This document shows positions 18,205 to 18,510 of a stretch of 44,584 nucleotides of DNA, piece after piece. Where the stretch lies: positions 1 through 44,584 of IMG/VR virus record IMGVR_UViG_2529292883_000001; one strand, given 5' to 3'. A program made the translations under genes and the position numbers. This DNA comes from a virus. Lineage: Duplodnaviria; Heunggongvirae; Uroviricota; Caudoviricetes. The notes below the pieces were generated by a model. The model was not told the origin of the DNA. It did no database searches and worked only from the letters and a program-made list of their open reading frames with translations. Positions within the stretch are counted from its first letter, which is position 1. Each line of letters starts with the position of its first letter.

Positions 18205-18279
18205 TGGAGCGGGCAGCGGGAATCGAACCCGCATCATCAGCTTGGAAGGCTGAGGTAATAGCCATTATACGATGCCCGC
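18205..18279 (-). tRNA. tRNA-Gly (anticodon UCC)
   Basis: 75-nt cloverleaf folded by hand, including CCA; anticodon loop CTTCCAA; T-loop TTCGATT. Confidence 0.75.
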
Positions 18280-18282
18280 ATA

Positions 18283-18358
18283 TGGTGCCGACTACCGGAA
18301 TCGAACTGGTGACCTACTGATTACAAGTCAGTTGCTCTACCTACTGAGCTAAGTCGAC
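18283..18358 (-). tRNA. tRNA-Thr (anticodon UGU)
   Basis: 76-nt cloverleaf; anticodon stem ACTGA/TCAGT, loop CTTGTAA; one A-C mismatch in T-stem. Confidence 0.65.
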
Positions 18359-18360
18359 AC

Positions 18361-18437
18361 TGGACCGCCACCGGGGACTCGAACCTCGCACACTCAACTT
18401 AAAGGGTTGATGCTCTTTCCTGATGAGCTAGTGGCGG
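18361..18437 (-). tRNA. tRNA with UUU-type anticodon loop CCUUUAA (Lys-like, atypical C33)
   Basis: 77-nt cloverleaf with perfect acceptor and anticodon stems but C at position 33 and a T-stem mismatch. Confidence 0.45.
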
Positions 18438-18438
18438 T

Positions 18439-18510
18439 TGGTGGCCCTTGCTGGATTTGAACCGACGACCTGGCGATTATGAGTCGCTCTAACCAATGAG
18501 CCAAAGGTCC
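18439..18510 (-). tRNA. Degenerate tRNA-Ile2-like (CAU anticodon loop), probably a pseudo-tRNA
   Basis: 72 nt; acceptor, D-arm and T-arm recognisable, anticodon loop CTCATAA, but the 5' strand of the anticodon stem is missing. Confidence 0.35.

Follow-up and report, generated by a model that had tools for sequence, protein, structure and literature searches.

A tRNA module in the late operon of an Escherichia coli lambdoid prophage as an apparent variant of the Stx-phage ileZ-argN-argO cluster, with a decayed ileZ and a tRNA-shaped argN homologue

Phage tRNA genes have long been explained by codon compensation, and now also by the countering of tRNA-cleaving defences. Here we describe four tRNA-like genes at positions 18205-18510 of a 44,584-nt stretch of viral DNA (the window; IMG/VR record IMGVR_UViG_2529292883_000001), which lie on the minus strand between the late-gene antiterminator gene Q and the lysis cassette. 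The region is a late-operon tRNA module of a lambdoid prophage beside serU in Escherichia coli, and its homologies indicate that it is an evolutionary variant of the ileZ-argN-argO cluster of Shiga toxin (Stx) phages. In the reading that we favour, with a probability of roughly 65%, the third and fourth genes in the order of transcription would supply host-type tRNAs, the first is dead and the second would be a tRNA-shaped RNA. The interest lies in this unexplained tRNA-shaped member rather than in the cluster itself.

The four genes stand head to tail with 1-3 nt between them, and CCA is encoded in all four. In the order of transcription they carry the anticodons CAU (slot 1), UUU (slot 2), UGU (slot 3) and UCC (slot 4). 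ARAGORN missed the CAU gene and called the other three, all of them minus-strand: Gly(UCC) at 18205-18279, Thr(UGU) at 18283-18358 and Lys(UUU) at 18361-18437. For pseudogene scoring we used two proxies, ARAGORN and the Rfam tRNA model run in Infernal, which has a gathering score of 29 bits. The Rfam model matched all four genes, with 64.9 bits for Gly, 69.0 for Thr, 44.7 for the UUU gene and 39.7 for the CAU gene (the fourth match, at 18442-18510), and with E-values for the whole window from 5.7e-12 to 4.8e-05. An earlier note on this DNA had placed four tRNA-like genes between Q and the lysis cassette. Its outer coordinates were exact, and the strand is minus. The anticodons it had read by hand (UCC, UGU, UUU with C33, and CAU) agree with ARAGORN, Rfam and the sequence, and the shortened anticodon stem it had seen in the CAU copy corresponds to 4 nt missing from the 5' strand. 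It had also suggested that the last two members may be pseudo-tRNAs or unusual decoders. The first of these held for the CAU copy, which a 4-nt deletion, six substitutions and divergence at the rate of spacer DNA mark as a pseudogene. The UUU gene may be an unusual decoder or a non-decoding RNA, and both its C33 and the short-loop genes that fill the same slot in other genera speak against normal decoding.

The alignment to ileX/ileZ and argN that the earlier note had proposed revealed ileZ and argN homology, and overturned its statement that the set does not match the ileZ-argN-argO pattern. The CAU gene is ileZ, the UUU gene is an argN homologue and only argO is absent. In the Stx phages 933W, VT2-Sakai and 2851 the ileZ-argN-argO cluster likewise stands after Q and before the late genes that come next. 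The first gene is the same, since in intact relatives of the window cluster ileZ is 76/76 identical to that of the Stx phages (EC6, which is an E. coli prophage, PPompW, VT2-Sakai and phage 2851 share it), and it is 68/76 identical to K-12 ileX. The second gene is homologous, with 79-83% identity to Stx-phage argN over all 77 nt and the same scaffold. The two clusters differ in four respects. Their ileZ is intact and the one in the window is inactivated; the argN loop CUUCGAA (Arg UCG) reads CCUUUAA here; argO (Arg UCU) is present there, and copies of thrU and glyT stand here instead; and no stx genes follow in the window, where the lysis cassette comes directly after the module. PPompW phages retain Arg(UCU) after the same UUU gene. 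For the history of the Stx-phage cluster we relied on database annotation and general knowledge.

Slot 1 (18439-18510, minus strand), which we call psi-ileZ, is an inactivated tRNA-Ile2(CAU) gene. Compared with ileZ it has six substitutions and a 4-nt deletion, which removed one GAGC of the tandem GAGAGCGAGCGA. The substitutions introduce the mismatches A3.G70 and C51.A63 and replace A9, G15 and G20. The 5' strand of the anticodon stem is short by 4 nt, and a fold can keep the D stem or the anticodon stem but not both. The complete four-helix cloverleaf of a tRNA-Ile2 is lost, and the intact ileZ with which the Stx cluster begins is likewise missing. The gene keeps the loop CUCAUAA and C4/C5 with G68/G69. 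TilS uses the acceptor pairs C4-G69 and C5-G68 of the lysidine-dependent tRNA-Ile2, the AUA decoder with the CAU anticodon. Divergence from the closest relatives is 8.3% for psi-ileZ, 7-9% for the adjacent spacers and 0-2.6% for the other three tRNA genes. With 6 of 72 sites changed, psi-ileZ is distinguishable from the other three tRNA genes (3/228; Fisher p = 0.007) and not from spacer DNA (28/359; Fisher p = 0.81). The predicted minimum free energy (MFE) is -17.8 kcal/mol (z -0.3) for psi-ileZ against -33.5 kcal/mol (z -4.0) for intact ileZ. MFE was used solely for this loss of energy; as a test of tRNA-likeness it was dropped because the genuine thrU copy gives no cloverleaf either. From these comparisons we conclude that the CAU copy is an ileZ pseudogene in this lineage, a case of ordinary lineage-specific loss.

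The junction left by the 4-nt deletion was absent from IMG/VR. Metagenomes gave a single occurrence, on one contig with different surroundings, in a CAU gene that is intact apart from this junction (56.2 bits, accepted by ARAGORN). We therefore abandoned the idea of a private accident, and because the junction was seen again elsewhere, slippage at the tandem GAGC repeats looks recurrent. In one IMG/VR locus (L303), slot 1 was called Ile(UAU) rather than Met/Ile(CAU). An ileZ-type gene with a UAU anticodon would read AUA without lysidine.

The slot-2 gene (18361-18437, minus strand; Lys(ttt) in ARAGORN) has the 7-nt loop C32 C33 U34 U35 U36 A37 A38 (CCUUUAA) on the stem UCAAC/GUUGA. Besides C33 it carries the discriminator U73, not the A73 of tRNA-Lys, and an A51.C63 mismatch. 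It is unrelated to host tRNA-Lys, and RefSeq labels its relatives tRNA-Lys. Between argN and slot 2 the loop change is accompanied by compensatory changes in the stems, C-G to U-A at 27-43, G-C to A-U at 30-40 and U-A to C-G at 7-66. Further changes separate the clades of the slot-2 family, C4-G69 to U4-A69 and A51.C63 to A51-U63 or G51-C63. The cloverleaf was 97.3% paired over 50 distinct family sequences, with double changes in five pairs, and slid controls reached 29-53%. This covariation supports, and does not prove, a constraint on the cloverleaf. The gene differs from its relatives at 2 of 77 positions, compared with 8-9% in the adjacent spacers.

In a loop-agnostic scan only the stem UCAAC/GUUGA was fixed and the loop was left free, which gave 126 copies. 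The loop was CCUUUAA in 121 copies, UCUUUAA in two and ACUUUAA in one, all with C33. Because C33 stands in 124 of the 126 sampled copies, it is a fixed feature of this E. coli lineage and not a private error. The remaining two copies have other loops on the same stem. One (L182, minus strand, offset 8455) has the canonical Lys loop CUUUUAU with U33, and all its 21 pairs are Watson-Crick. The other (L255, minus strand, offset 3747) has the Arg(UCU) loop UUUCUAA and lies within a Met-Arg-Thr-Gly cluster. Together they suggest a route of anticodon switching. In the PPompW phages of O157:H7 (L003:2579-2654), the UUU/C33 gene has GCUC in the 5' strand of its D stem shortened to GCC and is still annotated tRNA-Lys; Arg(UCU) and an ISEc20 insertion follow.

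U33 is the near-universal U-turn nucleotide, and tRNA-Lys(UUU) depends on t6A37 and mnm5s2U34 to read AAA and AAG. C33 acts as an anti-determinant for t6A37, as E. coli TsaBCDE does not modify U33C tRNA (PMC8887486). Slot 2 is therefore predicted to lack t6A37, because C33 would block TsaBCDE. With tRNA-Lys the gene shares UUU and A37 in a 7-nt loop, and it lacks U33 and A73. We infer from these positions that it would be at best a weak lysine decoder. The tRNA-Lys label that RefSeq gives it in hundreds of genomes may be wrong.

We sought relatives of slot 2 with its 5' 20-mer in one genome per species and with a 3'-half pattern in IMG/VR. Prophages of several genera, among them Pseudescherichia, Enterobacter, Buttiauxella, Dryocola, Citrobacter and Cedecea, carry clusters of the type Met(CAU)-X-Thr(UGU)-Gly(UCC) after Q. 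X keeps the acceptor stem, the D arm, an xCAAC/GUUGx anticodon stem and the T arm. In the 3'-anchored set the 5' half of X could be read in 53 copies, of which 45 are identical there. The anticodon loop of X, with a length of 5 or 6 nt, takes 26 different sequences among 78 copies (examples are L136:1474-1547, L131:7700-7773 and L280-L334, such as L281 and L292). ARAGORN reported these short-loop genes as tRNA-??? or with odd, inconsistent anticodons, and they had no Rfam family match even at E <= 1. The scaffold is near-invariant across genera, also in stand-alone copies whose flanks cannot be aligned. One stand-alone copy, 81 nt long and with its anticodon arm enlarged, lies across the annotated yahM gene beside yahN/yahO/prpR. 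Of the 5426 complete E. coli genomes 5170 carry it, and so do E. albertii, E. ruysiae and E. whittamii (L147:727-807 in E. coli ECDA1023; also L141, L145, L165, L168, L172, L176, L177 and L181). It had no flanking phage genes and no Rfam match.

Outside the loop, the slot-2 gene of the window differs at 7 positions from the short-loop type and at 12 from Stx argN. In argN proper the loop CUUCGAA is kept while the scaffold varies. In the slot-2 relatives the scaffold is kept and the loop is free, which is the opposite of what a decoder would show, and this is our chief ground for doubting that slot 2 acts via its anticodon. It is conceivable, and for the present a tentative proposal that we would not bet on, that slot 2 is a non-decoding member of an undescribed family of tRNA-shaped RNAs in lambdoid prophages of Enterobacteriaceae, with the stand-alone yahM copy in the E. 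coli core genome. The loop of such RNAs would be free in sequence and in length (5-7 nt), and they would act via their shape. They might, for instance, serve in processing, or divert or outcompete other RNAs at defence nucleases or modification enzymes that bind tRNA. We also considered the short-loop anticodon arm, an inverted repeat whose spacer varies, as a duplicated attachment site and rejected this, since no second copy of the arm was found within the loci.

Slots 3 and 4 are of host type. The Gly gene of slot 4 (18205-18279, minus strand) agrees with K-12 glyT at all 75 positions (75/75). Slot 3 (18283-18358, minus strand) holds a Thr gene that agrees with K-12 thrU at 75/76, and its sole change, C2U, keeps a U2.G71 pair. 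In the host both genes belong to the thrU-tyrU-glyT-thrT operon; the phage Thr and Gly genes are only 3 nt apart and are therefore not a simple copy of the host operon. In other copies of the cluster these genes carry compensatory changes; in the Gly copy, for instance, C6-G67 has become U6-A67. At five IMG/VR loci the anticodon of the slot-3 thrU copy has switched from UGU to UUU, which gives the loop CUUUUAA on a Thr body (L208, three others, and L192, where the cluster is on the minus strand and reaches from about 90 nt upstream of offset 7569 to 330 nt downstream of it). The slot-2 gene beside these switched copies has U8C, C4U, C11U and a restored A51-U63 pair.

The codons singled out in the earlier note did not behave alike in the late genes, where ACA, GGA and ATA were moderately enriched and AAA was not. 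Over 21 late open reading frames (ORFs) the frequencies per thousand were 6.0 for ATA, 10.8 for ACA, 12.9 for GGA, 19.0 for GGG and 34.3 for AAA. In K-12 the values are about 4.3 for ATA, 7 for ACA, 8 for GGA and 11 for GGG. In the working that we propose, the module would be transcribed at a high level only after Q antitermination, and the transcript would be cut into separate RNAs by host tRNA-processing enzymes, as its position and the 1-3 nt spacing suggest. Slots 3 and 4 would be functional duplicates of thrU and glyT, which the host has in single copy, and would raise the supply of the minor tRNAs reading ACA and GGA/GGG. Slot 1, the AUA decoder ileZ, is dead in this lineage. Slot 2 would give an argN-family RNA of tRNA shape whose structure is under constraint, kept mainly for a role that does not need the canonical loop. 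It could compete for tRNA-binding enzymes or nucleases, or aid processing.

Several points weigh against this proposal. Transcription from pR' is deduced from position. The enrichment of ATA, ACA, GGA and GGG is modest, about 1.4-1.7 fold over the K-12 values, and AAA is a common codon with six host genes, so that supply cannot explain the UUU gene. The covariation counts come from closely related sequences. Moreover, about 30% of the sampled slot-2 copies have harmful-looking changes, with U8C in 23 and a 1-nt D-stem deletion in 15 copies of the PPompW type; G53A occurs in two sampled copies. Judging from these damaged alleles, the slot-2 gene may simply be dispensable.

We consider it unlikely that the cluster is an anti-defence supply, which would keep translation going when the tRNA-cleaving defences of the host fire. 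Slot 2 would then be a lysine tRNA on a foreign body, unseen by the tRNA-Lys nucleases PARIS AriB and PrrC, and the thrU copy would replenish the tRNA-Thr(UGU) destroyed by PARIS and P2 Old. The AriB motif is U36AAUC/A41, with the cut between 40 and 41, and a U39A change prevents the cut (PMC12409363). The block of lambda by P2 Old works through cleavage of tRNA-ThrU at CNG motifs of the anticodon stem (PMC12445682). Slot 2 has U36AAGUU41 at these positions, and neither strand of its stem UCAAC/GUUGA contains a CNG, so that it is predicted to escape both AriB and Old. The UUU anticodon also arose more than once in the module, in the five switched thrU copies and in the canonical CUUUUAU loop of L182, and for AAA no codon compensation is needed. 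In the post-Q slot of other lambdoid phages Asn(GUU) and/or Thr(UGU) is found, and Asn has no codon-usage rationale (PMC3636060). These matches to defence systems are suggestive coincidences, not tests. On the other side, the thrU copy is the same as the host gene in the anticodon arm and remains a substrate of AriB and Old, and the anticodon switch of thrU is a single lineage event. In slot 2, C33 should prevent the t6A37 on which tRNA-Lys(UUU) depends (PMC8887486), and the discriminator is U73, not A73.

The nuclease-resistant tRNAs of T5, which neutralise PARIS, are a close known case for such a function. They have the UUU and UGU anticodons of the host tRNAs destroyed by AriB, as found here (PMC11464382, PMC12409363). 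Positions 39-41, the site of the T5 resistance mutations, are also where the UUU gene of the window departs from host tRNA-Lys, and it thus combines the anticodon of a targeted tRNA with a changed recognition and cleavage site, as predicted from its sequence. The differences from T5 are that the window belongs to a temperate phage with a late module, that its Thr copy is host-identical and thus not resistant, and that its UUU gene has C33 and a body of the Arg-tRNA type.

A reading with two live genes and two relics, in which the UUU and CAU genes are passive pseudogenes and only the thrU and glyT copies matter, seems to us improbable to a similar degree. In its favour, psi-ileZ is clearly dead, slot 2 scores only 44.7 bits and has C33, U73 and the A51.C63 mismatch, damaged slot-2 alleles with U8C, the D-stem deletion or G53A are common, and selection on prophage genes is weak in lysogens. 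However, slot 2 differs from its relatives at only 2/77 positions against 8-9% in the spacers, its between-clade changes are compensatory or preserve G.U pairs, and its scaffold is near-invariant across genera, also in the stand-alone copies. That all four genes are functional decoders, with unusual yet active UUU and CAU members, is very improbable and, for the CAU member, already contradicted by the sequence: all four lie above the Rfam gathering score, and the metagenome CAU gene with the same 4-nt-shorter junction has intact arms at 56.2 bits, but the window CAU copy also has acceptor and T-stem mismatches, has lost G15, must give up its D stem or anticodon stem, evolves at the spacer rate and has 16 kcal/mol less folding energy than the intact gene.

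The favoured reading, an Stx-type late-operon cluster with a tRNA-shaped slot 2, can be set beside further systems. The phages SfI, Sf6, ST64T and P21 have Asn(GUU) and/or Thr(UGU) after Q, with Thr(UGU) directly downstream of Q as in the window, and an ACA codon bias was proposed as the reason for this Thr(UGU) in lambdoid phages (PMC3636060). The likeness is one of anticodon and position, and the partner is Asn there and Ile, a Lys-like gene and Gly here. The tightly packed cluster of T4 (Ile CAU, Thr UGU, Gly UCC, Arg UCU) shares three anticodons with the window, and T4-like phages match the window CAU, Thr and Gly genes at 82-85% identity. The T4 tRNA cluster also has two stable RNAs of unknown function, and a non-decoding stable RNA among tRNAs would be the parallel for slot 2. 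T4 differs in being a lytic myovirus whose cluster is not controlled by Q and has no member of the argN family. Bacillus cereus has a non-decoding tRNA-like gene, tRNA-Other, for which a role in regulating a tRNA synthetase gene was proposed. It resembles slot 2 in being tRNA-shaped, with an atypical anticodon loop, and in being retained though unlikely to decode. It differs in that its sequence and host are unrelated and that we identified no counterpart of its regulatory role here. The function of slot 2 would show whether temperate phages use tRNA-shaped RNAs beyond decoding.

Among the 5426 complete E. coli genomes, 500 had a match that covered at least 80% of the 411-nt cluster region. 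The best match had 95.7% identity, and in the relatives the region has 4 nt more than in the window. PGAP annotates their four genes as tRNA-Ile, tRNA-Lys, tRNA-Thr and tRNA-Gly, flanked by genes for an antitermination protein and a class II holin. The cluster is also present in three sequenced phages, PhiR47_1 among them. Our search of the available literature found no description of this four-gene module, and nothing usable on ileZ/argN/argO or on yahM together with a tRNA-like gene. The module is thus already annotated in hundreds of genomes, and what is unexplained is the slot-2 gene with its short-loop relatives. For a module found in about 1/11 of complete E. coli genomes, the host copies fit supply and the UUU gene on its foreign scaffold fits evasion.

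The cluster sits between Q and the holin gene, and all of these are on the minus strand. Q (19590-20411) matches Pfam PF03589 Antiterm (E 3e-50) and is annotated 'antitermination protein' in the closest E. coli relatives. The holin gene (17697-17912), of the phage 21 S type, is the first gene of the lysis cassette (Pfam PF04971, E 1.4e-35). Upstream, on the same strand, lie RusA, a DUF968 gene, Q, a terminator-like hairpin and a 239-aa ORF (orf239). Downstream there follow a structured spacer, the holin gene, DUF1327, lysozyme (16789-17322) and Rz (16328-16807), the last two also of the lysis cassette, an HNH gene and the terminase gene. The integrase gene (33553-34578) adjoins tRNA-Ser(CGA), after which come mtfA, tRNA-Asn and a yeeJ-like gene. 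Because the integrase gene adjoins tRNA-Ser(CGA) and the yeeJ-like flank gene is 99.2% identical to E. coli, we assign the window to a lambdoid prophage at serU in an E. coli host.

Just downstream of Q, a consensus scan found a terminator-like hairpin with a T run (19490-19509, minus strand), a 7-bp stem followed by TTTTATATCT. From its position it is a candidate tR', which would be read through by the Q-modified polymerase. Between Q and the tRNA genes lies orf239 (18631-19350, minus strand), which has no assigned function. It is conserved beside the cluster in EC6 and HM670 and is missing from PhiR47_1. It had no match in Pfam or NCBIfam, and in PADLOC only a weak match to AbiC (E 1.4e-3). 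Its codon use is unusual, with 21 ATA, 25 AGA and 25 GGA per thousand codons. Possibly it is a moron that has a promoter-like site of its own upstream. We rejected orf239 as a tRNA-related defence or nuclease gene, given the lack of a family match, the AbiC E-value and its absence from PhiR47_1.

The spacer from the last tRNA gene to the holin gene is highly structured and forms three long hairpins (18021-18203, minus strand). In the fold of 17913-18204 (292 nt) its MFE is -92.5 kcal/mol (z -4.78), and none of 200 shuffles was equally stable. The hairpins lie at about 18203-18147, 18144-18074 and 18073-18021 on the minus strand, and after them a terminator-like GCCCGC-UUUU-GCGG with a U run stands near 17979-18001. 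The first hairpin is shared with the related loci L187 and L255. At two unrelated loci (L336:6578-6690 and L178:3102-3293) the Rfam small RNA STnc100 lies directly upstream of the CAU tRNA or tRNA-like gene. In some lambdoid prophages STnc100 may thus belong to the late-promoter leader; in the window Rfam gave no STnc100 match.

Plus-strand matches to plastid ycf2 in the window were discarded as artefacts, since they are sub-threshold and exactly antisense to the tRNA genes. Three further Rfam matches were seen in the window. The sok antitoxin RNA lies at 22813-22988 on the minus strand (111 bits), where relatives have hokD annotated. DicF lies at 30157-30208 on the plus strand (71.8 bits), within the early region of the prophage, and STnc490 at 44145-44268 on the plus strand (146 bits), just past the yeeJ-like gene.

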